A DNA stretch of 64,000 nucleotides from positions 104,261 to 168,260 of the IMG/VR virus record IMGVR_UViG_3300033485_000002; one strand, written 5' to 3'. Every line of letters starts with the position of its first letter. Positions within the stretch are counted from its first letter, which is position 1. This stretch comes from a virus. Under the pieces are notes generated by a model. That model saw only the letters and a program-made list of their open reading frames with translations, had not been told where the DNA came from and made no database searches. The position numbers and the translations under genes are program-made. Positions 1,817-57,701 of this stretch are shown one piece after another.

Positions 1817-3685
1817 ATGACCGCCAGGATGGCTAAGCGTCTAACCGAAATTGCCGTAGACCGCATCACCCCGGCTATGGAGAAGACTGTCAAAATGCTT
1901 GACCGCATTATGCGGAACAAGGTCAAGAAGTATGGTGCTTCTCAGCTTGTGACAAAGAGTAAGCGGTTTGGTAAGGATGCCTTTTTCAACGAGTATAAGG
2001 GTAGGGTCATTCGTTTAGGCGGGGGCACTGGCCCGACTGTTCATGTAACTCGTCTTAGAAAGCCAGCTAAGCTGCGTAAGCATAGGGAAATCCCCGGAGG
2101 ACAGTTTGACGATTTGAACAATGCGGTAACTATCAATCCGTCAATTTTTCGGGGCAGCCCAGAGTCGTCACAAAATACTATTGCTCATGAGCTATTTCAT
2201 AGTACAGATCCTGGTGCTTTGATATCAAGAAGTTACAAATTAGGGTCAAAGGGGTACTATCAAGACCCTGCGGAAGTCTCAGCCATAGCTGCAACTGGTT
2301 CATTAAGAACTGTTCGCCATTTTCATCAAAACGATATACCTGACAAAGTTGCCAGGATGAAGATTTCCAGTCGGAACCGAGACGATTGGAGAGATCCCCA
2401 TCTGTGGATGCTAATGCAGAAGAATAGTGGAAGTTCTAAAGTAGAGAGGAAGATCCGTCAAAAGGTGGGGAAGAACCTTCATCGAGCTTATGAGCGGGTA
2501 TACCGCCCCGAGACGTATGTGCCTCGGGCGGTTAAACGGGCGAAGCTGCCCGAGGGGTTGGCTGAAGCCGTTTCCAAGTGGACTCGGCAGGGGTTGCGTC
2601 AGAAGTGGAGCATTTCTCCGACTGTTGATACCCATGTTCCTAATCCGGAATTCGATCAAGTGTTCTCCTTGTGGCAGATGCAGCACCCTCACAAGAAGGT
2701 TGTGGGGAATACTTTGAAGATGGCTAACGAACGTCGTGCGGCTGTGAGTAAACGTAAGAAACTACCGGAGGATATGAACATGCCCGAGCGTGAAGAGCTG
2801 TTAGAGCGTGCCCATGCTTTCTTGAACGAGGGACCAGGAGCCTATGTGAACTCATTGATTGGTATGGCTCCTCATCAGGAGAATCGGGGGCCAACGTATG
2901 AGAAAGCCTACAAAACGTACCAGCACCGGGCAAGAAAAGGAGCGGTGATCGGGGCTGTGACTGGTGCCGCTGCGGGGTTTGCTGGTGGGGCGCTTGCTGG
3001 TGGGATAACTGCGCCTTTTGGAGCTGTGGTTGGGGCACTCGGTGGTGGTGCTGCTGGGAGTGCAATGGGGCAATATTCTGCTTATCGGAAGATAAAAAAA
3101 GCTTCTTACCCGAAACCCGTTAAGCCCACTACCGAAGAGCTTCTCGACCGTGCCGCTGAGTTTTTGAATGAGGTTGTATCTCGGAAGACTAGAGCCGAGT
3201 TGAGTGGGCCGTGGGATGAGCCAGAGGGCAATTACTCATCTCGGGACCATTTGGCATTGTTAGCTAGTAACCCAGGGGACTGGATGGGGTCAAGGGAGCA
3301 ACAAGCGGCTCAGAACACCTTACAGATGAACAAAGAACGAATGGACGCTTATTCTGCTCAGACTGACGCTGCTATTAAGGGTGATTGGTTTAAGGAGCGT
3401 CTTTCGGGTAAAACTCGTAAAGAGATAAAGAATGCTTTTAAACGTTCGGGAGTAGCTTATCCCCATGGACGGCATCCTCGTAAAGATCGTAGAGGTGGTA
3501 GTCTTGACACGCTTATGACCCAATGGCGGAAAGAGCATCCAACGGAAGAGCTATTAACCCAAGCTCGTGCTTTCTTGGATGAAATTGTTGCCCCTCAACC
3601 ATCTCTTTCGCAAAGGGTGGAACGGGCAAAAAAGAAGGGGCCATTGGGTCAGATGTTGGACCCCTACGCCCATGTTAAGTTTTAA
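1817..3685 (+). CDS. basic modular protein, putative internal head polyprotein (HExxH module, glycine zipper, 3x EELLxxAxxFL[ND]E linkers)
   Basis: AHELFH at 2183-2200; linkers at 2792-2830, 3134-3172, 3545-3583; GAVIGAVTGAAAGFAGG zipper; K/R-rich. Confidence 0.75.
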   Translation: MTARMAKRLTEIAVDRITPAMEKTVKMLDRIMRNKVKKYGASQLVTKSKRFGKDAFFNEYKGRVIRLGGGTGPTVHVTRLRKPAKLRKHREIPGGQFDDLNNAVTINPSIFRGSPESSQNTIAHELFHSTDPGALISRSYKLGSKGYYQDPAEVSAIAATGSLRTVRHFHQNDIPDKVARMKISSRNRDDWRDPHLWMLMQKNSGSSKVERKIRQKVGKNLHRAYERVYRPETYVPRAVKRAKLPEGLAEAVSKWTRQGLRQKWSISPTVDTHVPNPEFDQVFSLWQMQHPHKKVVGNTLKMANERRAAVSKRKKLPEDMNMPEREELLERAHAFLNEGPGAYVNSLIGMAPHQENRGPTYEKAYKTYQHRARKGAVIGAVTGAAAGFAGGALAGGITAPFGAVVGALGGGAAGSAMGQYSAYRKIKKASYPKPVKPTTEELLDRAAEFLNEVVSRKTRAELSGPWDEPEGNYSSRDHLALLASNPGDWMGSREQQAAQNTLQMNKERMDAYSAQTDAAIKGDWFKERLSGKTRKEIKNAFKRSGVAYPHGRHPRKDRRGGSLDTLMTQWRKEHPTEELLTQARAFLDEIVAPQPSLSQRVERAKKKGPLGQMLDPYAHVKF

Positions 3686-3700
3686 TGAGGTAATAAGAAG

Positions 3701-4297
3701 ATGAACCCGAACATCGTTAGAGCCGCAGTGACTGCCGTGAAGTCGGGTTCGCATACGCCGAATCATGTGATTGCCCTGCGTAAGGCGCATACCTTCTTGT
3801 CGGCTAACAAGTCCCACGCTTGGAACAAAAGTCCCTCACTCCATCAGGCTTTCAACAAGGTTGGGTTAGGCATAAAGACGGAGAGTGCTATGAGCAAGGA
3901 TAAGGCATTGTTTGCCCAGGTTGTTAACCATCTGATTGAGGAAGAGGGCAAGAAGAAAGCCCGTAAGCCTTGGCCGATCCGGCCCAGTGAGTTGAGCGGG
4001 ATGATCAAAGCCAGCCGTGATAAGAAATGGGGTTATGGGCTTTCGGTGGCGGTGAACCATCCAGAGGTGGGGCAGGTGACCTTCGACAAGTTCTTCAATA
4101 AGCCGAACCAAGTGGGGCACCGGTTGGATACGCGCTCCTTCAGTGATCAGGAGCGGCTTGTGAACTTTCTCAGACGGTATGGAGTGGAGCCTACGATCAA
4201 GGGGCCATCCGCAGGTGGGGAAGCTGCTCCGGTCGGCAAGAAGACCAAGAAGACCAAGAAGCTGAAGGAAACGCTTGATGAGGACCGCGAGTTCTAA
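3701..4297 (+). CDS. basic protein, putative internal head protein
   Basis: GAGGT SD; LFAQVVNHLIEE linker; C-terminal domain paralogous to N-terminus of next gene. Confidence 0.7.
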   Translation: MNPNIVRAAVTAVKSGSHTPNHVIALRKAHTFLSANKSHAWNKSPSLHQAFNKVGLGIKTESAMSKDKALFAQVVNHLIEEEGKKKARKPWPIRPSELSGMIKASRDKKWGYGLSVAVNHPEVGQVTFDKFFNKPNQVGHRLDTRSFSDQERLVNFLRRYGVEPTIKGPSAGGEAAPVGKKTKKTKKLKETLDEDREF

Positions 4298-4299
4298 GC

Positions 4300-6978
4300 A
4301 TGGGCAAGTGGTCGCTTCTTGAGGTTCGAGGCTTCCCGAGCATCACCGGGGAGGAGCTGTTGCAGCTTGTCCAGGATGCTCGGTTCAGGGGCGGGAACAC
4401 ACTCAGCTTCAGGGTGGACATCGATGACCCGGTCAAGGGTTTGTTGTCCTTTCGGCGTTTCCTTGGTAACGGTACCAGTCGAGTCGAGATCCGATCTTTT
4501 GCTAACCGGGACAAGCTGATCGCGTTCCTCGGTGAGCATGGCGTACGTTATAACGTACGGCACCATGTACATGAGGATGTGGGCCACACCTTTACCAGAC
4601 AGGCTACTGGGATTCCTTTCTACGTTAACGGCAACTTTGAAGTTTGTATCGGAAAGCCGGGGCAGTTCCACGCCACGATGAAGGGCTATGAAGCTGATGA
4701 GCGTACCAAGGGCGTGTTCGCCCGTGGTTACTATCATTCGGCAAGGCCGATTCAGGATGTGCCATCTGCGTTGCAGTGGTGGACAGAACATCTGCATGAT
4801 GCCGCAACAATGCAGGAGTTAGAGAGAATAGCGACAGAGGCTTTTGAGAAAAAGGGATACAGGGTGGAAGAGCCTAACTGGTCCAAGTGGTTGAAGAGGC
4901 GCAAAGAGCAAGAGTTTGTGGCACTGCGCAGAGCGGGGAAGGTCATGCAGCGAGAGGGAGCTATCGAACGAGCTGTTGACCAGCTACTCCATGAACATGA
5001 AGCAAAATATACCGGTTATTCTCCATTTGGTGGGGGGATTAGATCTAAAGAAGCACAATCTCATATGAAAAGACTTGGAGGAGAACTTCGTAAGGAGAAG
5101 GGGTTATCATATCTTTTATACCCTGAGTATTACGGCCACTGTGCTCACTGTCGTCAAGATGACAGTAAAATGTGGTTAACGTCGCATAGACAGTGGAGTA
5201 AACTTCCTTTAGAACATCGAGATAAAGTGTTATGTGTGAATTGTTTTCGCAAATTAAGTAATCTAAAAGAAGTACATGATATTACCCAAAAGGTTTATAG
5301 CGAAGCGGTTGACCATTTGCTTGAGGGGGTTCAGGTGACATCAGGTCAAGCTCGACGAGTGGCTGAGCGTATCGGGGCGAATAAGGTTGACCTGGAGCAG
5401 CTCCGTCGAGGGCTTGAGGTTGAGCAGGAGCACGGGGACAAGGACAAGCAGACGGATGTGGTCCCTGGCAAAGATGCTAAAAACCTTGACACCTTCGGCA
5501 AGATCGCCTTGGCTCACCTGAAAGAGATTCCGGACTACTACACCCGGCTCGCCAAGATGGAGAAGGTAGGCAAGAAGGCGGTCAAGGAAGCGGTAGAGCA
5601 TCTGCTTCGTGAAGATTCTATAGCTGACACTCTTCAGACTATGCTTGCGAAACATCGTAGTACAAAGGTTCGGATCAAAAATCGTCCACCGGTACGAGTA
5701 GTTGTCCGTCATAAAGCAACATCTAGATCTCTTACAGGGGCTTATTATCACCCTGGGGAGCAACAGGTATACGTTGGTAAAAAGGGGAAGAAATTTTCGC
5801 CTTTTGAGCGAACAATTTTAGCGCATGAGCTGGGACATCACCGGAATTGGAGCCATGTCCCACTTTCTCCGCAGGGGAAAATGAAAATGGCATCAACTGC
5901 TCAGGCAGCGTACCAAGCTGGGGCGCTTGCAGGTACGGTAGGAGCGCTTGGTGCAAAGACTGATAAACAGGCGAAGGCAGCGGCGACTATTGGCACGGTG
6001 GCGGCATTACCTCGTTATGGGGATGAGGCGTTGGCTAATGCACGTGCGCTTGGGCGTACTGTAGCGAAACACGGAGCGCGGGGGCTTTTAGCAGGTAAAG
6101 CAGGCCCATTACGTGCTGTTGGTGTGAGTATGGCTAGTTATAGCATGTTGCCTGCTATGCCTTGGTTAGCTTATGCCCATCGTCGAGCAATTAGAAAGTC
6201 GGCAAACTATCATGCTCTTCAATCAAGAACCCGGAAACAAATTCAACATGCTGTTCAACATGGGGAGAGCACAAGGCGTTTAGCTAAAAAGTATGATGTG
6301 ACGCGGCGGTCTGTGCGGGCGATGGGCAAGAGTACTCGGACACCTAAGCCATCGTGGCATAGTCATTCTCCTTACTATGGTTATTTTCTTCAAACAGCTA
6401 AAAAGCAACGTCATGGGGTCAAGGAAGCGGTAGAGCATCTGCTTCGTGAAGGCAGGTTCGATTACAAGTCCTCGGTGGGGGTACAGAGTCAGTTTGCCCC
6501 GCAGCAGAAGATGACGTTGCAGAGAGCGGTTAACACGAATAAGTATTCGGCACCGAAGGCTTCACAGCAAGCGGTTAAGCCGCAGGTATCGAAGCAACAG
6601 GAAGTCAAAGAAGCTGCGGATCAGATGCTTGCCGAGGGGTTCTTCAAAGATATGTTGTTCTACGACCTGTCCCGACATCACCCTCGTGCCGGTAGGCGGG
6701 CTGAGCACATGCGTCCAGCGTCTTCAAAGCCTAAGCCAGCTTATGAGCCTATGGGGCGGTATAACCCGGCTACGGTGTATCCGGAAGGGCACCCGATGCA
6801 TCCAGGTACGGTGAAGGCTCCTAGCCCGATAGCAACAACGGCAAGTAGTTCAGCAAAAGCAGGTACGGCAAAGAAGCTTTTTACGCGACGGAGTGCAGCG
6901 GTTTTGGCAGTTCCGCTATTAGCTGTAGGCGGCACGAAAGCGTATGAGGCATGGGCGACTCGTCGTAAGAAAAAGTAG
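4300..6978 (+). CDS. 892-aa modular protein, putative internal head polyprotein (CxxC finger, DUF5661-like, HExxH zincin modules)
   Basis: Five linkers (ERAVDQLLHE, EAVDHLLE, 2x EAVEHLLRE, EAADQMLAE); GLEVEQEH..IALAHLKEIPDYYTRLAKME DUF5661-like motif; AHELGH 5821-5838. Confidence 0.8.
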   Translation: MGKWSLLEVRGFPSITGEELLQLVQDARFRGGNTLSFRVDIDDPVKGLLSFRRFLGNGTSRVEIRSFANRDKLIAFLGEHGVRYNVRHHVHEDVGHTFTRQATGIPFYVNGNFEVCIGKPGQFHATMKGYEADERTKGVFARGYYHSARPIQDVPSALQWWTEHLHDAATMQELERIATEAFEKKGYRVEEPNWSKWLKRRKEQEFVALRRAGKVMQREGAIERAVDQLLHEHEAKYTGYSPFGGGIRSKEAQSHMKRLGGELRKEKGLSYLLYPEYYGHCAHCRQDDSKMWLTSHRQWSKLPLEHRDKVLCVNCFRKLSNLKEVHDITQKVYSEAVDHLLEGVQVTSGQARRVAERIGANKVDLEQLRRGLEVEQEHGDKDKQTDVVPGKDAKNLDTFGKIALAHLKEIPDYYTRLAKMEKVGKKAVKEAVEHLLREDSIADTLQTMLAKHRSTKVRIKNRPPVRVVVRHKATSRSLTGAYYHPGEQQVYVGKKGKKFSPFERTILAHELGHHRNWSHVPLSPQGKMKMASTAQAAYQAGALAGTVGALGAKTDKQAKAAATIGTVAALPRYGDEALANARALGRTVAKHGARGLLAGKAGPLRAVGVSMASYSMLPAMPWLAYAHRRAIRKSANYHALQSRTRKQIQHAVQHGESTRRLAKKYDVTRRSVRAMGKSTRTPKPSWHSHSPYYGYFLQTAKKQRHGVKEAVEHLLREGRFDYKSSVGVQSQFAPQQKMTLQRAVNTNKYSAPKASQQAVKPQVSKQQEVKEAADQMLAEGFFKDMLFYDLSRHHPRAGRRAEHMRPASSKPKPAYEPMGRYNPATVYPEGHPMHPGTVKAPSPIATTASSSAKAGTAKKLFTRRSAAVLAVPLLAVGGTKAYEAWATRRKKK
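5580..5614 (+). repeat. 35-bp exact direct repeat, copy 1
   Basis: ggtcaaggaagcggtagagcatctgcttcgtgaag, identical to 6417-6451. Confidence 0.95.
6417..6451 (+). repeat. 35-bp exact direct repeat, copy 2
   Basis: Identical to 5580-5614; offset 837 bp (279 codons, in frame). Confidence 0.95.
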
Positions 6979-7035
6979 TTTATCTTGTTGGGACTAGCGA
7001 TGTAGCTTTATTCTAGGGAGTATAGGAGACTTAAA

Positions 7036-7839
7036 ATGGCTAAGCAAAAAACTGTATCCTCTAAAGAACATGCAGCGCAAAGTAGAAGGTGGTTAGCCCA
7101 AGTTGGAACAGGGGGACTTGGTGGCTATATGGGGGGGCGTGCTATTGGGTCTGCTATCCCTACTAGTAGTATGACTGCGAAAGCTGCACTTATGACTGCT
7201 GGTGGAGTTGGTGGGGCAGTTGGTGGGTATTATGCTGCCAAATCTCATTTAGGACAGGACTTAAAGCAAATGGAGCGAAGTCCTAATAAGCCAAAGGCAG
7301 CTAAAGCTTTTGCTGCTAATCATCCGGTTGCAGCGGTAATGATCCTGCCGAAGAATAAGTTTCAACAGCAAAAGTTAGCTTCTCGTGGTACTGGTGGGCA
7401 CATAGGGCATGCTCTCCTCCGAAATATGGGGGGCGGCCCAATGAATATTATCCGGTATGGGGCAAAATCCCATTACGCTAAAGCCGGATATTATCGAGAG
7501 GAAGATATGCTTAGAGATGAGCTGATTGAGCAGATTCTAGTAGCTGCTTTAGACGAAGGTAAGCTCCAGGATCTCGATCAAGCGCTTCATCGTCAGCGGA
7601 AGTTTAAGAGCAGGGGGCTTCAGAAGGCTGACAAGTTCTTACACCGCCGCCCAGCACAGGATGTTGGACGAGCTGCCCGTCGTGTGAAGCGTGTTGCTAG
7701 TGGTGCGGCGCATAAGGCTGTCCGTGGGCTGAAACGAACGGATCGTAAGCTGCACCGTTCTTATCAATTTAAGAATAAGGGATTGAAGAAGGTGGACAGG
7801 TTCCTGCATCGGAAGATTGCCGAGGCTGAACTTGCATGA
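7036..7839 (+). CDS. basic glycine-zipper protein, putative internal head protein
   Basis: AGGAG SD; GGLGGYMGG/GGVGGAVGGY zippers; ELIEQILVAALDE linker; duplicated LHRxxxFKxxGLxKxDxFLHR segment. Confidence 0.75.
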   Translation: MAKQKTVSSKEHAAQSRRWLAQVGTGGLGGYMGGRAIGSAIPTSSMTAKAALMTAGGVGGAVGGYYAAKSHLGQDLKQMERSPNKPKAAKAFAANHPVAAVMILPKNKFQQQKLASRGTGGHIGHALLRNMGGGPMNIIRYGAKSHYAKAGYYREEDMLRDELIEQILVAALDEGKLQDLDQALHRQRKFKSRGLQKADKFLHRRPAQDVGRAARRVKRVASGAAHKAVRGLKRTDRKLHRSYQFKNKGLKKVDRFLHRKIAEAELA

Positions 7840-7859
7840 GCGGTAAAGAGTAGTATATT
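7832..7859 (+). promoter_or_regulatory. possible sigma70-type promoter
   Basis: TTGCAT-N16-TATATT upstream of structured RNA and tRNA. Confidence 0.4.
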
Positions 7860-7874
7860 ACCTTTTGAAGGTAA

Positions 7875-7949
7875 GGCAGGTGGGTGTTGGCACAACTGCC
7901 ACCCCGGCCCCCCATATCACCAACACGGGGACCGGGGCCTTCTTTTTTT
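7875..7949 (+). ncRNA. candidate structured RNA (two hairpins with complementary loops, ending in U-tract)
   Basis: Stems GGCAG-GTG/CAC-CTGCC and CCCCGG-CCCC/GGGG-CCGGGG; loop GTGTTGG 7884-7890 complements CCAACAC 7920-7926. Confidence 0.45.
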
Positions 7950-8021
7950 AGGGGCATGGTGTAATCGGTAGCACGCAACACTTTGGATGTTGTGGTTGGG
8001 GTTCAAGTCCCTGTGCCCCTG
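7950..8021 (+). tRNA. tRNA-Gln(UUG)
   Basis: Acceptor AGGGGCA/TGCCCCT; D-arm GTGT/GCAC; anticodon arm CAACA-CTTTGGA-TGTTG; T-loop TTCAAGT; CCA not encoded. Confidence 0.88.
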
Positions 8022-8050
8022 TTTCGGATTTAGTGTGGGGGTCTTTTACT

Positions 8051-8254
8051 ATGGAAAGTGGCAAGATGCTTTACCTTCTTGTGCAACGCACGGAAGTTCT
8101 TCATGGGCATAATGATATCTACGCTGGTGTTTTCGAACTGCGCTCAGATGCGGAAGCGGCTATTGCCCAACAACCTATCAACTTGCGTTGGCAGTTCGTG
8201 ATCTATCCGGTCATGTTTAAGCGGCTACGTACTCCGGAGTATTCGCCTCCGTAG
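8051..8254 (+). CDS. hypothetical protein
   Basis: Small ORF with YAGVFELRSDAEAAI motif typical of small phage proteins. Confidence 0.55.
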   Translation: MESGKMLYLLVQRTEVLHGHNDIYAGVFELRSDAEAAIAQQPINLRWQFVIYPVMFKRLRTPEYSPP

Positions 8255-8274
8255 TCTTTATTGCATGGGGTGGG

Positions 8275-8469
8275 ATGACCAGTTTACTGTACCTCGGGGC
8301 GCTGTTGTTGCTGCTGCTGGTCTGTATCGCTGTCACGAATACCCGCTCCAGTGTTCGTTGCCCTGCTTGTGGGACAATGATGCGGCGGATGGCGAATGCT
8401 GGATGGGGCATGACGCTGTATATCTGTCCTATTTGCAAGAAGTACTTCTATGAAGACGAGGTTGGATAG
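8275..8469 (+). CDS. membrane-anchored zinc-ribbon protein
   Basis: N-terminal hydrophobic helix, then CPACG...CPICK. Confidence 0.6.
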   Translation: MTSLLYLGALLLLLLVCIAVTNTRSSVRCPACGTMMRRMANAGWGMTLYICPICKKYFYEDEVG

Positions 8470-8485
8470 TTGCGGTTGCACGGGC

Positions 8486-8514
8486 TTGACAAAGATGCTC
8501 ACGTCATCTACGAT
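8486..8514 (+). promoter_or_regulatory. sigma70-type promoter
   Basis: TTGACA-N17-TACGAT in an intergenic gap. Confidence 0.65.
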
Positions 8515-8603
8515 TTAGGGGTCATGGGGATGCCCGTTAACGCAGCTAAGAGACCTTGAACCGGCCCGCCGTCAGGCGGGTCTTATCATGAAAGGATGAC
8601 ATT

Positions 8604-8963
8604 ATGAATGTTTATGTGTTGTTTGCGCAACGGAAAGAACGTTTCCCTGGGCAGTACGCCCCGGAAGCCTTGGCAGTGGTGGACGAGTACGTGTTGAACG
8701 ATGACGGGGTCTCTCTCGAAGAGATTCAGAAGCGCACGCTCGAACAGGACAACCCGGATGACTTCGTGTCGGTGAAGTGGGTGATGGTGAAGCTGACGGC
8801 TACTCCCGCTGATATCCGGGAGATGTTGGTCGGCATGCCGACTATCACGGGGGATGTGCCGGTGCCCCCGGAGCACAAAGGGAACCACCCCTCCTATCAG
8901 GGGATGACCGTGACTCAGGGGCGCAAGGGCGGAAAGATCGAAGATTCCGAGATCATTGACTAG
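8604..8963 (+). CDS. hypothetical protein
   Basis: AAGGA SD; G/C-ending codon bias. Confidence 0.7.
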   Translation: MNVYVLFAQRKERFPGQYAPEALAVVDEYVLNDDGVSLEEIQKRTLEQDNPDDFVSVKWVMVKLTATPADIREMLVGMPTITGDVPVPPEHKGNHPSYQGMTVTQGRKGGKIEDSEIID

Positions 8964-8971
8964 GTATCGCT

Positions 8972-9274
8972 ATGGCACAGTATCGACGATATGGCTATGT
9001 GACGACTGTTCGGGTTGAAAGAGATGGGGAATTGGTCGAGGATGCAAACATTGCATTTGACCTCAATCCGGGCTTAGCGAACGATAAGCTTGATGCCGTC
9101 ATCAACAACCGAGTGCATGCAGATGCACACAATAAAGTACTCGAAAATAACATACTTAAGCCTAATGGCGATCTTCAAGGCCAGGAGATTCGTACCGTCT
9201 TAATTCGATGTGCGGATGGTGTGACCCTCCGGTTTTCCATCCAGAGATGGTACGTGGTTGTCGGGAGGGAGTAA
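8972..9274 (+). CDS. hypothetical protein
   Basis: Operon packing. Confidence 0.6.
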   Translation: MAQYRRYGYVTTVRVERDGELVEDANIAFDLNPGLANDKLDAVINNRVHADAHNKVLENNILKPNGDLQGQEIRTVLIRCADGVTLRFSIQRWYVVVGRE

Positions 9275-9278
9275 CACC

Positions 9279-9674
9279 ATGGGGAGCGGGTACTATGAGA
9301 GTGCTTTGCTACGCCTCCGCCGCATCGTGACGTATCTGAACGCGAGGTACAATGATGTTTTCGAGGGGCAAGACATCACGCCAACTCAATTCGAAATTCT
9401 CCTGTTCGTCGAATCCAATGCGCCATGCAGCGTGTCTGCCATAGCGGAGTTCATGCTCGTGGATAAGTCTACCTCGTCGCGAGTTCTCGGGGGCATCCAG
9501 GACAAAGGGCTGGTTCAGATAGAGCGGGATACGGTGGACCGTCGCCGGAATCGAGTGAGTCTGACCCATATGGGGCAGGATGCCGTCACGAGCTTCAAAG
9601 CTGCATGGTTCGAGGTGGAAAAGGGCGTCAAGGGCCAGTACGATAAGGCAATTGAGCATTTGGAACGTTTCTGA
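9279..9674 (+). CDS. MarR-family winged-helix transcriptional regulator
   Basis: ITPTQFEILLFV..SVSAIAEFMLVDKSTSSRVLGGIQDKGLV..DRRRNRVSLTHMG is a typical MarR pattern; GGAGG SD. Confidence 0.9.
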   Translation: MGSGYYESALLRLRRIVTYLNARYNDVFEGQDITPTQFEILLFVESNAPCSVSAIAEFMLVDKSTSSRVLGGIQDKGLVQIERDTVDRRRNRVSLTHMGQDAVTSFKAAWFEVEKGVKGQYDKAIEHLERF

Positions 9675-9690
9675 CCGATAGGAGGCTACT

Positions 9691-9915
9691 GTGTCCGTAC
9701 CGATTGATGTGGTATTCGAGAAGCAGGTGGATAATCATTGGCAACCAGTTCGGAGCGCAGAGTTACGGCCAGGGGACATAGCCAGGATGCGGATGCTCAG
9801 TGGCGAGGTTCTACGGGATGACGCAGGGCGGGAGACGTTTCAAGTAGCCGGGGTGAATGGTCGGGATCCAGATTCTAAGTCACAATTCGATGTCAGTCTC
9901 GAACCAATGGTATAG
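9691..9915 (+). CDS. hypothetical protein
   Basis: AGGAGG SD before GTG. Confidence 0.65.
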   Translation: MSVPIDVVFEKQVDNHWQPVRSAELRPGDIARMRMLSGEVLRDDAGRETFQVAGVNGRDPDSKSQFDVSLEPMV

Positions 9916-9923
9916 GGGGCACA

Positions 9924-10178
9924 ATGGTAGTTGATCCAATAGAGCGTATCCGGGAGCTGTATGGGGACGAAATAGCTGAACGGATGCAGGTGTTCGCTGA
10001 GCGTGCTGAAAAAGAGAAGGCTGTAAAAGGTGCCTCGTTCTCGATTGACCCTCGCCCCATCTTTGTAATCATGACAACAACGGCTCTTTTGTGGGGTAAA
10101 GATCCTCGGCAAATACTTACCGCTGAAGTGTACGGTAAGGTGATGGACCTCATGAATATGTTCTTCAAAGATAAGTAA
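9924..10178 (+). CDS. hypothetical protein
   Basis: Operon packing, followed by terminator. Confidence 0.6.
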   Translation: MVVDPIERIRELYGDEIAERMQVFAERAEKEKAVKGASFSIDPRPIFVIMTTTALLWGKDPRQILTAEVYGKVMDLMNMFFKDK

Positions 10179-10201
10179 CCACTCCCAAGATGGGATTTAG
10201 G

Positions 10202-10232
10202 GCCGAGTCTTTTGACTCGGCTTCTTTATTTT
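10202..10232 (+). terminator. intrinsic terminator
   Basis: GCCGAGTC-TTTT-GACTCGGC then TTCTTTATTTT. Confidence 0.75.
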
Positions 10233-10252
10233 GCGATGGGAGGCGGCTTTAG

Positions 10253-11701
10253 ATGTCTCTGACCAAAGATGAGCTGCTTGCTTATGTTAGGAATCGTCAG
10301 CGGCCAGGGCATCGAGCCGCCGTGTTGAAGAAATATCAGTCAATGGCACTTTCACCTGCGATGTTGGAACGGGGGAAGAAAGCTAAAGAAGTGGCTGATA
10401 AACTTCGTGATAACGTTTTAGTCCGTGCTGCTGTGAAGAAAACATTTGAAACTGGAGAAGAAGATATGCCCATGAATAGGCTAGATGAGCTACATTTCGA
10501 TTTAACTAAAACGCGCCAAAGAGAACGGTTAGTTCGTGGCTCAAGTGATGCTCAAGATGCCTATAAGCGGCGTTATAAGGTAGCCCGAGTCGGACAGGCT
10601 GCAACACGACTTGCTGCTCATACGGGAGTAGGATTAGCGGTTGGGGGTACTGTTGGTGGCCCAATTGGGGCAACTATTGGCGGCGGGCTTGGGTTAGCGT
10701 CGGGACTTCATTCAATTAAGTACCCGAGTATGCATCTGATGAAACTGCGGCATAAGTATGCGTTGAAGAAGGGGCTTCGGGATGTGAAAAAGAGTGAGAG
10801 GCTCCAGCGATGGGGTGAGCGTCGAATGGAAAAGTTTCGGCGGCAGGGAGAGCGGCAGCAGGCTATTCAGAATTATAAGCGAGAATTTCGTGAGGGGTTG
10901 TATGAAGCTCCGATTGTGACTGGACCTGCTGCTGCGGCAATTTCTGCTCTTGAGCGGAGTGTTGCTAAGAAAGGCGCTGCCTCGGCTGTTCAGAAAGTTG
11001 GTAGACTTGCTGCGGCTAAGAATAAGTTTTTAGCCTCGAAGTTTGGGCAGTCAAAGTACGTACAGTCGAGTCTTCCGCGTCTTAAGAAGACAGGTGAGTT
11101 TTTCGGTGATGTTCGGCATATGCCTAAAACCGCTCGGGATCTTGTGTTTGCCCCGAAAGGACCGAAGGGGTTTCGTAGTGGTCTTGCAAAGCGGTTAGGA
11201 AGACAGGCGCTGGCCGGTGAGGTGATGCTGACTGGTGGAGTTATGGCCCATCATAAGATTAAAAAGATGGCCGATCAACATTACGCTCATAAGGCGTATC
11301 AGCAGCAAGCAGAGTCTGATGAGTTGTTTAACGCAATTGTGCCAGGGTTAGATCTGCAAGAATTAGCTATGCGCCGAGACTTGATCAATGAGGCTTGGGG
11401 TGCAGCTATCGGTGGTGCTGTTAAGTCTGCTGGTAGTTGGCTTGGTAGGTCAACGGGTGTGTTTACTGGTGCTGCAAATGTTGTAAGATCAGGTGGTATT
11501 AAGGACGTTATGAGAGCACGTGGTATGGCAAAAATTAACCACCCGATAGCTGGCCGAGTAAGACAAATTGGTTTAAATAAGATGGCTCCTGGTTTGGCAC
11601 AGATTAAAGGTGGTTTGGCTCCTGCGGCTACGATAGCTGGAGCTGCGGGGGCTTATAAACTTGGTCAGCGATCTGGTCGTCGATCGCAGCAAAACTACTG
11701 A
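10253..11701 (+). CDS. basic modular glycine-zipper protein, putative internal head polyprotein
   Basis: LxE junctions RLDE, GLYE, DLQE, LINE; GVGLAVGGTVGGPIGATIGGG zipper; K/R-rich. Confidence 0.75.
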   Translation: MSLTKDELLAYVRNRQRPGHRAAVLKKYQSMALSPAMLERGKKAKEVADKLRDNVLVRAAVKKTFETGEEDMPMNRLDELHFDLTKTRQRERLVRGSSDAQDAYKRRYKVARVGQAATRLAAHTGVGLAVGGTVGGPIGATIGGGLGLASGLHSIKYPSMHLMKLRHKYALKKGLRDVKKSERLQRWGERRMEKFRRQGERQQAIQNYKREFREGLYEAPIVTGPAAAAISALERSVAKKGAASAVQKVGRLAAAKNKFLASKFGQSKYVQSSLPRLKKTGEFFGDVRHMPKTARDLVFAPKGPKGFRSGLAKRLGRQALAGEVMLTGGVMAHHKIKKMADQHYAHKAYQQQAESDELFNAIVPGLDLQELAMRRDLINEAWGAAIGGAVKSAGSWLGRSTGVFTGAANVVRSGGIKDVMRARGMAKINHPIAGRVRQIGLNKMAPGLAQIKGGLAPAATIAGAAGAYKLGQRSGRRSQQNY

Positions 11702-11730
11702 AACTAAAGAGATAAGGAGTGAGGTGAACT

Positions 11731-12141
11731 ATGACTCATGAGGAAATGCGGCAGGAACTGATCGAGGCGATTATTGACGAGGCCCTCAAGGACAAGGCCA
11801 AGGCAGCGGCTGGTTGGGTTGGCAGTAAGGCTAAGGCTGGCGCAAAGGGTGTTGGCCGTGGGGCTAAGTGGGTTAGTCGTAAGACTGGCGCAACTGCTGC
11901 CGGTAAGTGGCTTGGTAGCTCCAAGGAAGCGTGGAAGGGAGCAAAGGGCCTGCGGCGAGCGCGTAAGATGGCGAAGCTTGGTCACCCGGTAGCAGGGGAA
12001 GTCCGAGCGGCTGCGATTAAGGCGCTGCGGAAGGGTGCTCCTCCTGCGGCTGTAGCATCGATGCTTGGTGCCGGTGCTGTTGCTGGTGGGTATGCTGGTG
12101 GCAAGAGCCTGCTCCGTCGTCGGCGCGAGGGTAAGTCCTAG
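11731..12141 (+). CDS. acidic leader plus K/A/G-rich basic protein, putative internal head protein
   Basis: MTHEEMRQELIEAIIDE then cationic amphipathic body; paralogous to C-terminus of 10253 gene (RARxMAKxxHPxAG). Confidence 0.75.
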   Translation: MTHEEMRQELIEAIIDEALKDKAKAAAGWVGSKAKAGAKGVGRGAKWVSRKTGATAAGKWLGSSKEAWKGAKGLRRARKMAKLGHPVAGEVRAAAIKALRKGAPPAAVASMLGAGAVAGGYAGGKSLLRRRREGKS

Positions 12142-12145
12142 TCAC

Positions 12146-12856
12146 ATGGCTTTCTCGTCTTCCACTACCCCAGAGGCGACGTGGAAGCGCATGAAGCGTC
12201 ACATCGCCAAAAGTGCTCGTCGTCTCGGTAAACGGGGCGACGAGTACCGGCGTTATGTCTACGGCGCGTTGAGAGCCAGGGGTTGGAAGCCGAAGCGGGA
12301 ACGAGTGCATGAGAATGAGCATGCTCGGGTACGTCAAGATATTGACACCGATTATGCTCATCATGCATTGAGGGGTAGCCGGAATCGGGACTTCAAGCAC
12401 ATTGAAAATAGGCGGCGAGGTGTGGTGAAGTTCTCGGTAGCTACAGAGGGACTTTTAGCTCGGGCTGACCATTGGTTGAACGAAGTGTACGGTGTAGATA
12501 TTGTTCCTACTTTCCCTCCTGAACCATTAGCGGGGAAGCTTGCTAAAAACCTTACAAAAAAAGTGCATAAAGAGTTACAGCGTGAAGCTTTTTCTCCTAC
12601 GCGAAATGTAAAGCGAGCTTTGAGATATCGCCGTAAGGCCCTGAAAATTAGAAAAACAAATGCCCCTAGAGCAGAAACAATGTTACGTCGAGCGAACGCG
12701 GTGTTAAAAAACCGGGTGCCAACATTGGCTGTTACAGGAGCTGGTTGGGTAGCGGGGCCAGGGTTTGGCACAGGGGAAGTTATGGCCGCGAGTGCTGCAA
12801 AAGGAATGAATCGCTACACACGAATGAGACGTGCTCGTTTTATGAGACGTAAGTAG
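12146..12856 (+). CDS. basic modular protein, putative internal head protein
   Basis: ATG 12146 just after upstream stop; EGLLARADHWLNE linker 12446-12484; R-rich. Confidence 0.7.
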   Translation: MAFSSSTTPEATWKRMKRHIAKSARRLGKRGDEYRRYVYGALRARGWKPKRERVHENEHARVRQDIDTDYAHHALRGSRNRDFKHIENRRRGVVKFSVATEGLLARADHWLNEVYGVDIVPTFPPEPLAGKLAKNLTKKVHKELQREAFSPTRNVKRALRYRRKALKIRKTNAPRAETMLRRANAVLKNRVPTLAVTGAGWVAGPGFGTGEVMAASAAKGMNRYTRMRRARFMRRK

Positions 12857-41381: not shown

Positions 41382-43154
41382 ATGGCTTCGCCGCTTGTAA
41401 ATGGTTTGATGCGTCTGACTCGGTTGGACAAGATTCTCCAGCAGGAGATGGCGGTACGCGCCCAACTTGGCGGTATCCCCACGCAGATGGCAGGGAGCGA
41501 TGATCTAGTTGGCGATTTGGCTGTTATTGAGGAAGCCCTCAGCCAGTTCAACATGATCACCCGCATGCACCGTGAACGACGGTTGCGGTACCAAGATTAT
41601 GACGCCATGGACAACTATGGTGATGTGTCGGTTGCCTTGGATATCTATGCGGAAGAAGCTACCCAAACTGATCTGATGCAAGAGACCAATCTGTGGATTA
41701 CCGGGGAACAGCGAGATGATGTCGAGGAGATGGTTCAGCGGTTGCACCTGCGGACCATGGTCCAAGGGTTTGCTCGACAGCTTGCCAAGTATGGAGATGT
41801 GTTTCAAAGCTTACGGTACAACTATGAAGGGTTGGACCGGATTCTGTATCTTCCCCCACAGTATGTCCATCGGATCGGTCCTAGCATTGACCTTGTGAAG
41901 TTCTTCAAGATTGACTCCCAGTTAGGCAAGGTTTCTCCCCGAGGGGATAACCTCCTTCTGCCGTGGGAGTGTGCTCACTTCCGCATCCTGTCTTTTGGGT
42001 TTTCGGTTCTGTATGGTCGCTCGATGTTGGAGCCTGCCCGTAAGCGGTGGCTTCATCTTAAACTGCTTGAAGATGCCGTTGCTATCTATCGTTTGAATCG
42101 GGCTGTTGAGCGGTTGATTTTCTATGTGGACGTTGGTGCGGCTTCGCCGCAGGAAGCGCTCCGCATGGTTAACCAGTACAAGCGGAAGTTCGGGAACAAG
42201 CGGTCGTACATCGATCCTTCGACGAGCACGTTCGAGCAGCAGTATGATCCGACCAACATGTTGGAGAACATCTTCTGGCCGGTGAACAGTGCTACGGAGC
42301 GTTCTCGGATCGAAAAGCTCGCTCCTCCTCCGGACCAAGGACAGCTCCAGGATCTAGCCCACTTTAACGAGAAGCTCTACGTTGCGCTCGGTATCCCGCG
42401 TGACTTTCTAACAGGGGAAACGACTGGTACCTGGAATAGCCGGGAGTCTCTGGCTCTTCAGGACATTCGGTTCTCTCGTAAGCTGCACCGGTTGCAAACG
42501 GCGTTACTAGAGGGGCTGGAGATGTTGGCCCGGTTCCACCTTGCTGTGAAGTACGGTAGTGCGGAGCAAGCTCAGGAAGCTGATTTCCAGATTCATCTTG
42601 CCGACGTATCCAAGATTGCCCGTCAGCAGTATGACCAGATTGTCCTGAACCGAGTACAGATGATGACCATGTTGAATGACATGGGCACTCAGATGAACTT
42701 CAATCGGGAAGTGTGGGTGAAGTGGATCCTGGCGAACTACTTCCCGGATCTCCCGAAGGAGATGATCGAGCAGTTGGTTGTGCCGGATGCCGCTTTGGCA
42801 CAAGCGCATCAAGAGATGGCTGATATGGCACGGCCAGTTATGGCTCCTCCGCAGGCTGCGTCAGCGAAATCTAAACCTAAACCTAAAGCGAAGACAGCCA
42901 AAAAGAAGACCCATGAGGAGATTATCGAGGGTGTAGTTGATAGGCTGCTTCAGCGAAATGTAGTTGAGGAAGATATCAATAGCATCGGGGATATCCTCGC
43001 TAATTGGCAGCCTGCGGATTTATCTATGACTTTGTTAGAGTCTGAGCGGCATCAGATCCCGGTTGAATGGCTCGAAGGTGCAGCGCAGCAATATAGTCGT
43101 TCATCTAATGCCCCCATCAAGAAGATCACAGAGACTGAACTTCTCGTGGAGTAG
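41382..43154 (+). CDS. portal protein (T4 gp20-like)
   Basis: YGRSMLEPARKRW..LKLLEDAVAIYRL.RAVERLIFYVDVG; ALDIYAEEA; DIRFSRKLHRLQ. Confidence 0.93.
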   Translation: MASPLVNGLMRLTRLDKILQQEMAVRAQLGGIPTQMAGSDDLVGDLAVIEEALSQFNMITRMHRERRLRYQDYDAMDNYGDVSVALDIYAEEATQTDLMQETNLWITGEQRDDVEEMVQRLHLRTMVQGFARQLAKYGDVFQSLRYNYEGLDRILYLPPQYVHRIGPSIDLVKFFKIDSQLGKVSPRGDNLLLPWECAHFRILSFGFSVLYGRSMLEPARKRWLHLKLLEDAVAIYRLNRAVERLIFYVDVGAASPQEALRMVNQYKRKFGNKRSYIDPSTSTFEQQYDPTNMLENIFWPVNSATERSRIEKLAPPPDQGQLQDLAHFNEKLYVALGIPRDFLTGETTGTWNSRESLALQDIRFSRKLHRLQTALLEGLEMLARFHLAVKYGSAEQAQEADFQIHLADVSKIARQQYDQIVLNRVQMMTMLNDMGTQMNFNREVWVKWILANYFPDLPKEMIEQLVVPDAALAQAHQEMADMARPVMAPPQAASAKSKPKPKAKTAKKKTHEEIIEGVVDRLLQRNVVEEDINSIGDILANWQPADLSMTLLESERHQIPVEWLEGAAQQYSRSSNAPIKKITETELLVE

Positions 43155-44477: not shown

Positions 44478-44852
44478 ATGGACTTTCTACACATATTAGA
44501 CGAATTTATCGAAGATACCTTGACCTCGGGGTTCACCGAGGAACAGATCGCGAAGATGCTTTTGGAGGAAGACCGTTTACTCCAAGAAGGGGATAAGTTC
44601 CTCCCGATCATTGAAGCAGTTCATCGTGTTCGGCGTACGATTAGTGGGGTTCGAATTACTACTCGTAAATTTGGGCGGAAAGATCCTCGGCGCTCTCAGC
44701 TTATGAAACGTGTTGCACGGACACATCGAGCAAGTCGATTGATGGCAGCACGGAAATATCAGCGTTCTCCCAAGGCTAAGAGAGTACGGCGTATTGTGAT
44801 GCAACGACGACGGACAATGCACCCTATGCCTTCTCGTTACGGGCGGCGGTGA
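44478..44852 (+). CDS. prohead core-like protein (acidic N-terminus, R-rich C-terminus)
   Basis: Acidic half with LDE/LLE/LQE/IIE sites then poly-Arg half, like T4-type core proteins. Confidence 0.6.
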   Translation: MDFLHILDEFIEDTLTSGFTEEQIAKMLLEEDRLLQEGDKFLPIIEAVHRVRRTISGVRITTRKFGRKDPRRSQLMKRVARTHRASRLMAARKYQRSPKAKRVRRIVMQRRRTMHPMPSRYGRR

Positions 44853-55768: not shown

Positions 55769-56134
55769 ATGGAACCTCGTCGTGTCACTCAGGCTAAAGT
55801 TGTTCCGGGTCAATCTGTGACTCGGTTCCATCTTGCGATGGACAACTCGATGTTGCCAGATGACACGACTGAGCTTCATGTGGCCCACCACACGTCCGGT
55901 GATCTGTCCGAACCGGCTGATTGGTACAATATTTACGAGCATCCAACTGAGTGGCAGCTCGAACTTGCTCGTATTGGCCTCAATATCGACAAAGAGGACT
56001 GGACGATTCTTGAGCATATGCTCGGGAGTTTCAAATGGGTGCTGTATAAGCATACTGCCGATCCTCATCGAGCCGAAATTCGTGTTGACGTGTCTGCCAT
56101 GAAACGTGGTGAGTGGACCACGACGTATTTCTAG
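55769..56134 (+). CDS. hypothetical protein
   Basis: Operon packing. Confidence 0.65.
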   Translation: MEPRRVTQAKVVPGQSVTRFHLAMDNSMLPDDTTELHVAHHTSGDLSEPADWYNIYEHPTEWQLELARIGLNIDKEDWTILEHMLGSFKWVLYKHTADPHRAEIRVDVSAMKRGEWTTTYF

Positions 56135-56144
56135 GAGATCGCTG

Positions 56145-57701
56145 ATGACAGACCTGATCGAAGTCATGCCCTTCAGCTACCAGATTCTGGAATCTGCTAA
56201 TGGGCGTTTTCGTGTCGAGGGTGTGTTCCAGCGGTCAGACGTGGAGAACGCCAACAAGCGGGTTTACCCGCGTAGCATCTGGGAACGAGAACTTAAAGAG
56301 CCGCGTGTTACCGAGTCTTTAACAAACCGGGCGATGTTCGGTGAACTGGACCACCCTTCGGATGGGAAAACCTCCCTTAAGCGTGTGTCCCACATCGTGA
56401 CGGGTTTGAATCTTCAGGATGACGGCTCGGTTATCGGTGTTGCCGAAGTTCTAGGCACTCCAAACGGACAAATTCTGAAGACACTCTTTGAATCCGGTGC
56501 TCAAGTGGGCATCAGTTCCCGTGGATCCGGGAGTGTTCAGAACGGTGTAGTTCAGGAGGACTTCAAGCTCAGCACATTCGACTTTGTAGCGCGACCTTCT
56601 ACTCCAGGTGCGCTCCCCCGCCTTGCGGGGGAAGTTAGTCGGCGAGGGAGTAAGACCGAAGACGTAACGGATGCTTCAACTGAAGTTGAAGTTGTCGATG
56701 TGATGGATGTTGACCTCTTTAACAGGCTCCAAAAAGAGCTAGCAACGTTAGAGGAAGGTCTTGATACTAACATCGACTTCAATACGTTAGCTCGTTCGGT
56801 TATCGAGCTTCATAATCTGGTCGAAGGACTCGATGCCATTACACCGAAAATGCGGTCGAGCCTGAATGAGCACATTCTCGTTCTCAGTGGCGAACTTACT
56901 CGGTTGGCTGCTGAATCACCTGAGCACCAAACGATCGTGGCAGAGTTGTTGAAGAAAGTCGAAGAGAGTCTTGAGGCCGTAATCATTCGGCCCACGAATA
57001 CTAGTGTTAAGGAGGAACCCATGGATAGGCTTCAATTCATTAAGGATCGACTCCAGGAAGCCGAGCTGGAAGCTACGGTGGATGCCACTGAAGCGGAAAT
57101 GCAGCTCGCGGCGGAAGTCGATGAGCTGCGCCAAAATCTTGAAGCCCTCGACGACGACGAGCTGGTCGATGTGGCCCTCGAAGTCGGGGTGATCTCTCCG
57201 GACGACCTCGAAGAGGATGACGATACCAGCGCCGACGACGATAGCGGAGAGACCGTTACCGTTCAGGATCTGCTCGATTATATCGAGGAGCTGGAAGGTC
57301 AAGTTGGAGAGGCGGCGGAGCTGATCGAGGGTATGGCTGCGCAACTGGAAGAGTCGGACGATAGCGACGATCTTACGCTCAAGTACGAGGCGGCTCTCGG
57401 CATCATTCAAGAGACGGTTACCCGTTACCACTTCCTGCAAGAGGCAGTTGGTGGTGAGGAGCGGGCCAACAAGCTGATGGAGAACCTTCTCCAGCGGCTG
57501 GAGTCCGACGATGAGGATGACGACGAGGACGACGAGGACGAGAAGCCCAAGAAGAAGAAGGGCAAGAAGGAAGAGTCGCTCGATGAGGCTGTTGCGGAAG
57601 TCGAGAAGCTTCTGAGCGAGGATGGTGACGGCCCCGACAAGAACATGCTTCGGTATAAGGAACTCGCTGAGAGTGTCCGCAAGAGTACCGGACTTAACTA
57701 G
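56145..57701 (+). CDS. prohead protease (T4 gp21-like) fused to acidic scaffold
   Basis: NANKRVYP, GELDHP, VSH, TPNGQI, GISSRGSGS, DFVARPS motifs; acidic coiled-coil C-terminus; AGGAG SD. Confidence 0.92.
   Translation: MTDLIEVMPFSYQILESANGRFRVEGVFQRSDVENANKRVYPRSIWERELKEPRVTESLTNRAMFGELDHPSDGKTSLKRVSHIVTGLNLQDDGSVIGVAEVLGTPNGQILKTLFESGAQVGISSRGSGSVQNGVVQEDFKLSTFDFVARPSTPGALPRLAGEVSRRGSKTEDVTDASTEVEVVDVMDVDLFNRLQKELATLEEGLDTNIDFNTLARSVIELHNLVEGLDAITPKMRSSLNEHILVLSGELTRLAAESPEHQTIVAELLKKVEESLEAVIIRPTNTSVKEEPMDRLQFIKDRLQEAELEATVDATEAEMQLAAEVDELRQNLEALDDDELVDVALEVGVISPDDLEEDDDTSADDDSGETVTVQDLLDYIEELEGQVGEAAELIEGMAAQLEESDDSDDLTLKYEAALGIIQETVTRYHFLQEAVGGEERANKLMENLLQRLESDDEDDDEDDEDEKPKKKKGKKEESLDEAVAEVEKLLSEDGDGPDKNMLRYKELAESVRKSTGLN
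57021..57701 (+). CDS. nested in-frame scaffold protein (internal start)
   Basis: TAAGGAGG-AACCC-ATG at 57021, in frame; codon bias shifts to MCP-like from here. Confidence 0.65.
   Translation: MDRLQFIKDRLQEAELEATVDATEAEMQLAAEVDELRQNLEALDDDELVDVALEVGVISPDDLEEDDDTSADDDSGETVTVQDLLDYIEELEGQVGEAAELIEGMAAQLEESDDSDDLTLKYEAALGIIQETVTRYHFLQEAVGGEERANKLMENLLQRLESDDEDDDEDDEDEKPKKKKGKKEESLDEAVAEVEKLLSEDGDGPDKNMLRYKELAESVRKSTGLN

Follow-up and report, generated by a model that had tools for sequence, protein, structure and literature searches.

Why would a phage place short amphipathic helices of one general kind, each ending in [L/I]-x-E (Leu or Ile, any residue, Glu), between otherwise dissimilar modules of very basic proteins? 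The question is raised by a cluster of seven genes, starting at positions 1817, 3701, 4300, 7036, 10253, 11731 and 12146 of the window, by which we mean the whole stretch of DNA analysed: bases 104261-168260, that is, the last 64 kb, of the 168,260-bp IMG/VR record IMGVR_UViG_3300033485_000002. By its sequence, the source is an uncultured T4-like phage. The 168,260-bp record is estimated to be 77% complete, and no DNA-level match to the window was found among 50,697 phage records. To describe its proteins, 207 open reading frames (ORFs) across the 168-kb record were defined by simple longest-ORF calling with hand corrections. A first-pass annotation had read the seven genes as polyproteins whose helices direct them into the capsid and mark them for cleavage by the prohead protease. 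Here, comparison with relatives establishes, with near certainty, that the proteins are modular and that the helices delimit the modules. Loading of the chains into the prohead followed by cutting at these joints by the phage's own S77 protease is the best-supported mechanism and, in our judgement, the probable one.

Thirteen joints in seven basic proteins

All seven ORFs are present where the first-pass annotation had placed them, and its nine quoted linker coordinates all translate to the peptides it gave; four further linkers were placed from peptides, so that 13 linkers were mapped in the seven ORFs. The genes lie on one strand (+, as do all features located below), upstream of tail-fibre-like genes. 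The first (1817..3685) encodes a 622-residue polyprotein of net charge +45 with four segments, namely an HExxH-containing N-terminal module (residues 1-338), a glycine-zipper segment (339-452), a third module (453-589) and a short tail. Its three joints, at 2792..2830, 3134..3172 and 3545..3583, end in F-L-N-E338 (followed by G-P-G), F-L-N-E452 and F-L-D-E589, respectively. The largest protein (4300..6978; 892 residues, net +66) has six modules: m1 (1-232), m2 (233-342), m3 (343-438, a DUF5661 domain), m4 (439-717, an HExxH motif with Gly/Ala-rich helices), m5 (718-779) and m6 (780-892). Its five joints lie at 4957..4995 (m1/m2, ending L-L-H-E232), at 5287..5325 (m2/m3, ending H-L-L-E342 directly 5' of the DUF5661 module), at 5575..5613 and 6412..6450 (m3/m4 and m4/m5, ending L-L-R-E438 before and L-L-R-E717 after the HExxH module) and at 6598..6636 (m5/m6, ending M-L-A-E779 directly before m6).

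Four of the remaining proteins have two modules and one joint each. In the 198-residue protein (3701..4297; net +17), a helical N-terminal module (residues 1-55) is followed by a joint at 3905..3943 that ends H-L-I-E80-E81 and aligns with L-L-E, L-I-E and L-L-S-E joints of relatives. The 267-residue protein (7036..7839; net +33) joins a glycine-zipper N-terminal module to a basic repeat C-terminal module through a joint at 7519..7557 with tandem sites, L-I-E and then A-L-D-E174. The 482-residue protein (10253..11701; net +52) has a C-terminal module (381-482) without a single Glu; its joint (11354..11392), ending D-L-I-N-E380, contains the weakest helix of the set, with a hydrophobic moment of 0.11. 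The 236-residue protein (12146..12856 from ATG, a TTG at 12065 giving a longer frame; net +38) has a joint at 12446..12484 that ends W-L-N-E113 and is of the type of the three helices of the 622-residue protein. In the 136-residue protein (11731..12141; net +20), a leader of 17 residues at the N-terminus, in which L-I-E and I-D-E sites stand in tandem, is followed by a 119-residue cargo of +25. Twelve of the 13 tags are therefore internal, and the one N-terminal helix is that of the 136-residue protein. The proposal that a helix precedes every module stands for the 13 joints mapped and fails for the first module of six genes, which carries no leader.

The description of the seven proteins as very basic was borne out: their net charges run from +17 to +66 and include five of the seven highest absolute net charges among the 207 ORFs. 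Per residue, the products of 12146, 11731, 7036 and 10253 rank within the top 14 of the 207, and those of 3701 (0.086), 4300 (0.074) and 1817 (0.072) fall outside the top 20. Cargo had also been called Glu-poor, which is true of 10 of 19 segment bodies (at most 3.5% Glu, against a genome mean of 6.4%) and not of the others. The modules are mostly unrelated to each other, as had been claimed, with the exception of two paralogous pairs. The C-terminal module of the 482-residue protein resembles the cargo of the 136-residue protein (E = 1.7e-11), one standing behind an internal joint and the other behind an N-terminal leader, and the second module of the 198-residue protein resembles the first module of the 892-residue protein (E = 5.6e-5).

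Although the helices vary in length from 10 to 17 residues and fall into at least three subtypes, their ends share a pattern. With the junction Glu numbered P1 and residues counted backwards from the putative cut, 11 of 13 joints have hydrophobic residues at P7 and P4, Leu, Ile or Met at P3 and Glu at P1. The exceptions are H-L-L-E342 of the 892-residue protein and D-L-I-N-E of the 482-residue protein, in which P7 is not hydrophobic; the P3 and P1 residues hold at all 13 joints when H-L-L-E is read as L-L-E. The residue after the Glu (P1') differs from joint to joint (G, V, I, A, H, D or E), and Pro-containing stretches often precede the joints. Elsewhere in the seven proteins, which total 2,833 residues, the pattern matches just twice. 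Compared with per-protein shuffles, the pattern count was 13 against 2.80 in the seven proteins and 111 against 81.9 in the other 200 ORFs; per Glu, it was 13/157 against 111/3220, an enrichment of about 2.5-fold (Fisher one-sided p = 0.0044). In addition, the mean helical hydrophobic moment was 0.47 at the joints versus 0.28 for the 3287 11-mers ending in Glu (Mann-Whitney p = 1.4e-4). Counted over the whole proteome, a check that the first-pass annotation had put forward, the motif is thus enriched in the seven genes while being common in others. Since the pattern is common genome-wide, its frequency is modest evidence, and the position and conservation of the joints are the stronger evidence. 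The motif by itself is not diagnostic.

The joints are also alike at the DNA level. An unbiased DNA repeat search over the sequence returned two families. D1, of 38 nucleotides, has four copies at 63-74% identity, three in the 622-residue protein gene (the copy at 2792 being the reference and the other two 74% identical to it) and one at the joint of the 12146 gene (63%). D2, of 35 nucleotides, has two copies that are 100% identical, at 5580 and 6417; they bracket the HExxH module, overlap the joints on its two sides (5580-5614 and 6417-6451) and are spaced 837 bp apart, which is 279 codons and in frame. A third D2 copy, at 66% identity, is the m5/m6 joint. The DNA of the helices is thus kept as repeat families and the flanks are unrelated. 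Because the linker is alike in DNA as well as in protein, it would serve as an in-frame recombination joint for the gain, loss or swap of modules.

Modules and joints among relatives

To see whether the helices are true module joints, we compared the proteins with their relatives. A full HMMER search with the 892-residue protein against 1.84 billion representative proteins gave 1021 matches at E <= 1e-3, of which 150 were listed. Apart from the self match, these 150 span single modules, and a few span two adjacent ones (e.g., P0005, residues 347-521). Among the matches listed, those to DUF5661 begin at query residues 343-349, just past the joint at 342, those to the HExxH module fall within residues 467-649, and those to the last module begin at residues 754-780. 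The retrieved proteins were then mapped onto the window segments with a threshold of E < 1e-4 for a module match. Of 152 proteins with a match, 129 had one DUF5661 domain, seven had two, and 16 had other modules in six arrangements: m1+m3 (four proteins), m4 alone (four), m6 alone (three), m1+m3+m6 (two), m1+m6 (two) and m1+m3 with the first module of the 12146 protein (one). That 12146 module is homologous to the C-terminal module of P0009 (E = 8e-14), and the N-terminal module of the 198-residue protein recurs in 10 metagenomic relatives. One relative, P0005 (1,295 residues), contains no fewer than five additional joints with helices of this type.

The joints recur at the module borders of these relatives. 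In the window and in all seven relatives that have it (P0003, P0004, P0101, P0152, P0153, P0143 and P0154), m6 begins immediately behind [L/I]-x-E. Just ahead of DUF5661 stands hydrophobic-hydrophobic-(x)-E, both in the window and in seven of seven polyprotein-group members. Such a site also comes before the HExxH module in three of five sequences, P0088 having no clear site and P0073 no leader. The modules flanking the conserved joints are 35-65% identical across relatives, and [L/I]-x-E is kept where the helix has decayed, for example at the joints before m6 in P0004 and P0101/P0152. In addition, P0006, a stand-alone homologue of the HExxH module, carries a 15-residue N-terminal leader that aligns with the internal linker at 5575 of the window. 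Comparison thus supports two readings: that the helices are true module joints, and that they act as leaders of the module that follows, since single-module homologues bear them at the N-terminus.

A natural one-module deletion may be seen in the near-identical metagenomic proteins P0101, P0152 and P0153. P0152 and P0153 are 97-99% identical, and what P0153 lacks is precisely the 85-residue glycine-zipper module bounded by two junction Glu residues, so that its 12-residue N-terminal leader runs straight into the next module. These proteins look like an instance in which a cassette was lost at the joints, though an assembly artefact is possible because the contig that carries P0153 is just 1.6 kb long.

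The 622-residue protein found itself alone among 5.8 billion proteins, and database searches with the 482- and 198-residue proteins likewise returned the queries alone. With the 892-residue protein, tblastn gave one DUF5661 match in an uncultured phage; scans of viral contigs with this protein and with an alignment (A1) found no relatives, and those with P0004 found DUF5661-level matches alone.

DUF5661 was also the only Pfam family detected in the seven proteins (E = 9.2e-15 in the 892-residue protein; module at 5326-5613, residues 343-438). Most of the 1021 matches at E <= 1e-3 are to this family, the greater part of them stand-alone proteins 80-130 residues long. Among the phage copies, N-terminal leaders like those of T4 occur in a minority. 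The family is very widespread, with seven tandem duplications among the 152 proteins, and our literature search found no paper that mentions it. The glycine-zipper segments weakly resemble, in PHROGs, the membrane-inserting parts of tape-measure and lysis proteins (E = 2.4e-5 to 0.09), and residues 375-471 of the 622-residue protein gave sub-threshold Pfam matches to Gly-zipper/DUF3482. HExxH motifs occur in the first module of the 622-residue protein and in m4 of the 892-residue protein. Neither module reached a Pfam peptidase family, while in the m4 family H-E-x-x-H is invariant in five of five sequences. ESM Atlas gave weak leads for the N-terminal module of the 622-residue protein to ArdC/IrrE-type Peptidase_M78, LPD23 and LPD39, with a feature score of at most 0.88 (named clusters) and a template-modelling (TM) score of at most 0.37, and no known polyvalent-associated Pfam domain was detected in the seven proteins.

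An AlphaFold2 model of the HExxH module (mean predicted local distance difference test, pLDDT, 58.9) has two strands and a helix around the motif, followed by long Gly/Ala-rich helices, and the flanking linkers are predicted to be helical with low confidence. In the model of the 198-residue protein (mean pLDDT 54.1), residues 1-50 alone are confident (about 90) and form a small helical bundle, and the linker is predicted as a helix at residues 63-81, again with low confidence. A BFVD fold search with the N-terminal module of this protein gave no match at E <= 0.001. The label of effectors that the first-pass annotation gave to the products is therefore speculation.

Head genes of the window and the T4 rule

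The gp21-type protease that had been reported for the window was confirmed: a 531-residue prohead protease of the T4 gp21 family (S77) is encoded at 56106..57701 (PF03420, E = 2.5e-18; phrog_207, E = 2e-40). It matches the solved structure of T4 gp21 (PDB 5JBL, E = 6e-9), and its catalytic His83 (in G-E-L-D-H-P) and Ser137 (in G-I-S-S-R-G) align with those of T4 gp21. The S77 domain spans about residues 35-170; the C-terminal half after it is long, coiled-coil-like and very acidic, with runs of poly-Asp/Glu and 19 [L/I/M]-x-E sites, so that the product looks like a protease-scaffold fusion. In T4, by contrast, genes 21 and 22 are separate.

The same type of [L/I]-x-E site as at the joints occurs in two further head proteins of the window. 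The major capsid protein of the gp23 family (57738..59129; PF07068, E = 2.5e-67, the match to the model beginning at residue 60) shares no more than 37% identity with the capsid protein of any cultured phage. Its M-L-D-E52 (nucleotides 57882-57893), proposed by the first-pass annotation as the end of a propeptide, is present and a plausible cleavage site judged by its sequence. The alignment with the T4 site is not exact: E52 lies about 11 residues upstream of the equivalent of the T4 gp23 cut at F-L-T-E65, where the window protein has S-F-E. The other is the 124-residue product of a head-module gene at 44478..44852, beside the region of the T4-type portal protein of the gp20 family (41382..43154; PF07230, E = 3.1e-47). 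Its 45 N-terminal residues are acidic with five [L/I]-x-E sites and the rest is Arg/Lys-rich and protamine-like (net +26); the strict motif matches three times against 0.16 expected. This product is likely an internal head protein with a propeptide, and a candidate for one that condenses DNA.

The joints agree with what is known of T4. T4 gp21 cuts C-terminal to Glu after L/I-X-E (PMC9026906). The first ten residues of the internal protein IPIII suffice for incorporation into the head. Within such a capsid-targeting sequence (CTS), residues 4 and 7 are the main determinants of targeting and residues 8 and 10 those of processing; with Asp at position 10, targeting still takes place and processing does not (PMC9026906). 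Counted from the cut, residues 4, 7, 8 and 10 correspond to P7, P4, P3 and P1, the very positions kept at the joints of the window. We took the T4 leader sequences from NC_000866. IPII and IPIII end in F-I-A-E, with Tyr at P7 and Phe at P4, and in Alt and gp24 a second site follows the first at a distance of four residues, a tandem form also shown by the joints of the 7036 and 11731 proteins.

The window system therefore shares with T4 IPI, IPII, IPIII and Alt a protease of the gp21 family, a leader ending in L/I-x-E, hydrophobic residues at P7 and P4 and tandem sites. Also shared are basic, otherwise unrelated cargo behind the leader and the placement of the cargo genes, which in T4 too (ip and alt) are found away from the head genes. 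In contrast to T4, where the tag is N-terminal and each gene has one cargo, the window has 12 of 13 tags within the chain and up to six modules per chain. Its helices are longer (10-17 residues, at least three subtypes), and the cargo is without similarity to any T4 protein. The T4 style of a single cargo behind an N-terminal tag is found solely in the 11731 protein, together with the 44478 product in the head module; the other six genes use the tag internally.

Two other phage systems invite comparison. In giant phages (phiKZ, 201phi2-1 and SPN3US), a diverged homologue of gp21 cleaves many head proteins, including ejection and inner-body proteins, C-terminal to Glu and at several places in each (PMC10052503, PMC9026906). 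Those cuts are described within long N-terminal propeptides that are discarded, and follow A-x-E or S/A/G-x-E. In the window, P3 is Leu, Ile or Met, the L/I-x-E motif stands behind an amphipathic helix, and the joints part modules with independent homologues; because the segments upstream of the joints have homologues of their own, they are modules and not propeptides.

The second system is that of the polyvalent proteins of phages and conjugative elements (Iyer et al. 2017, PMC5512222). They combine many unrelated domains in one polypeptide, for which packaging, and delivery along with the DNA, are predicted; they include embedded HExxH-type modules and follow a polyprotein logic. The window proteins likewise have at least two unrelated domains per polypeptide, modules with independent homologues and a virion-gene context near tail-fibre-like genes. 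The systems differ in that release of polyvalent proteins is ascribed to embedded peptidases; in the main text of PMC5512222 the word 'linker' does not occur and 'prohead protease' occurs solely in the reference list. In the tailed-phage literature that we searched, including PMC3012670, PMC10052503, PMC5512222 and PMC9026906 without their supplements, we found no description of targeting and cleavage helices reiterated between cargo modules.

Outside the tailed phages, encapsulin cargo-loading peptides are short tags that send unrelated cargo into a shell of the HK97 fold; they are usually C-terminal and uncleaved. We know of no polyprotein arrangement for encapsulin cargo.

Around the cluster, a MarR-family winged-helix regulator (9258-9674; PF12802, E = 1.6e-14) lies mid-cluster among small ORFs. 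Downstream are a protein with a Laminin_G_3/ConA-like lectin domain (13528-15216) and a beta-helix protein (22306-24135), both probably tail-fibre or receptor-binding proteins, so that the cluster adjoins tail genes. The T4 late-promoter consensus has no match within the window. A 9-base T-rich word is followed by a Shine-Dalgarno-like G-A-G-G/G-G-A-G-G at 1446-1463 and 1799-1817, one copy directly 5' of the gene at 1817 and the other before a small unannotated frame. These are the only two copies in the whole record, and we make no claim that the word is a promoter. Outside the window, the best-scoring joint-like helix beyond the cluster (reduced-alphabet score 15.6) ends in I-V-D-E at residue 58 of a 1683-residue protein (G000:C1:28797-33848), which may be a large virion protein whose N-terminal propeptide is cleaved off.

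Proposed prohead delivery weighed against its alternatives

The seven genes, a late cluster, encode very basic proteins made up of interchangeable modules, with a helix introducing each module after the first. For these proteins we infer packaging, targeting by the helix, cleavage and injection, in the following order. The helix would be this phage's version of the T4 CTS fused to a prohead-protease site, used both N-terminally and internally. The whole chain would be recruited to the prohead core through its helices, and the S77 protease of the gp21 family would then cut after the junction Glu residues. The separate basic products so freed, namely glycine-zipper peptides, HExxH-type modules, DUF5661 and others, would remain associated with the DNA and probably exit together with it upon infection. 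The joints, the leader behaviour of the helices, the fit to the T4 rule and the presence of the S77 protease speak for this scheme, and the capsid-loading and protease-maturation reading of the first-pass annotation is thereby supported in part.

Several observations weigh against it. The T4 experiments reported in PMC9026906 concern N-terminal targeting sequences alone, and six of the seven genes here have no N-terminal leader. Some 30 kb separate the cluster from the head genes, and the MarR-family gene breaks its continuity. The loose motif has its 111 matches elsewhere in the genome and is enriched per Glu by just the 2.5-fold given above; N-terminal leaders are not significantly enriched either, occurring in 22 of 207 ORFs against 14.4 +/- 4.0 in shuffles. 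Matrices built from the other genes recover the joints unevenly, with leave-one-gene-out scores from -8.2 to 17.8 (from -4.7 to 12.3 with a reduced alphabet), because the helices are of at least three subtypes. The 12446 joint was the top scorer among 12 Glu positions in such a test. At a permissive threshold the matrices found 427 sites in other genes against 328 +/- 17 in shuffled sequences, and with either alphabet they were dropped as evidence. None of the five phage records with the closest proteases shares any module, and the complete phage record G005 has no comparable basic multi-joint protein among its 25 most basic ORFs of at least 100 residues. Nor is a leader a general feature of DUF5661: in most of 143 proteins the domain begins right at the N-terminus, T4-like leaders being confined to a minority and an apparent leader peak at distance 0 being largely an artefact of N-terminal Met-Thr-Glu. 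The structure models are of low confidence. Finally, the HExxH motifs in two modules, the first of the 622-residue protein and m4, could themselves do the processing.

Among the alternatives, the one that survives best accepts packaging into the head and separates the functions. Here the short [L/I]-x-E would be the protease site and the helix would have no targeting role, or some helices would target while the rest ride along, and some joints would stay uncut. The persistence of [L/I]-x-E after decay of the helix before m6 in P0004 and P0101/P0152, and the D-L-I-N-E joint of the 10253 protein, which at 0.11 is nearly non-amphipathic, are what such a division of labour would produce. Moreover, SPN3US propeptides are cut at several sites and their cleavage can be incomplete (PMC10052503). 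Against this, 11 of 13 joints retain hydrophobic residues at P7 and P4, the targeting positions in T4, the mean hydrophobic moment clearly exceeds background, and the helix DNA is conserved as repeat families between unrelated flanks. We therefore regard a separation of functions as unlikely, if worth keeping in view.

A second alternative counts the proteins among the polyvalent proteins of Iyer et al. (2017), with release, if any, by their own zincin-type HExxH modules and with the helices as linkers between modules or as elements of oligomerisation. PMC5512222 proposes that embedded metallopeptidases bring about release autoproteolytically, and both the invariant H-E-x-x-H of the m4 family (five of five) and the Atlas leads to ArdC/IrrE-type Peptidase_M78 and LPD domains, at TM scores of at most 0.37, would accord with it. 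But joints occur in all seven genes and HExxH in just two; the invariants of the joints, Glu at P1 and Leu or Ile at P3 with a variable P1', are those of the S77/gp21 rule; and the HExxH modules match no Pfam peptidase family, the Atlas scores being in a range good for leads only. Release by the embedded modules thus seems a rather poor prospect.

That the proteins work outside the virion, as membrane-active or DNA-binding factors of lysis, exclusion or host take-over in the infected cell with the linker as a DNA recombination joint or helical spacer, is improbable: a cluster outside the head module that holds a MarR-type regulator, glycine zippers like those of tape-measure and lysis proteins and an exact 35-bp repeat indicative of DNA-level homogenisation would suit it, but a spacer would need no invariant Glu and Leu/Ile at P3 exactly at the module start across relatives, single-module proteins begin with the same leader, as T4 internal proteins do, and in T4, too, the ip and alt genes are set apart from the head genes.

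We therefore retain loading into the prohead and cleavage at the joints by the S77 protease as the probable course. A broader proposal, which we advance tentatively, is that the linker has a triple use as an in-frame DNA recombination joint, a capsid address and a prohead-protease site, and so forms a cassette system with which a lineage of T4-like phages would put together, exchange and deliver sets of injected proteins encoded in single genes. Its use as a recombination joint is suggested by the exact 35-bp repeats and by the natural one-module deletion in relatives. If this is true, the cassette system would be a phage counterpart of polymorphic-toxin cassettes and viral polyproteins, and in-frame exchange at the joints would explain how injected cargo diversifies.

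If the joints are indeed cut in the prohead, the T4 CTS can act internally and repeatedly, and the arrangement would provide a natural blueprint by which one gene could load a phage head with several proteins. The rule of an amphipathic helix ending in L/I-x-Glu together with an S77 protease would then predict capsid-delivered proteins in uncultured T4-like phages, proteins that are otherwise invisible because their cargo has no homologues. The glycine-zipper basic peptides, the minimal HExxH proteins and DUF5661 would, in that case, be candidates for host take-over or counter-defence in the first minute of infection.

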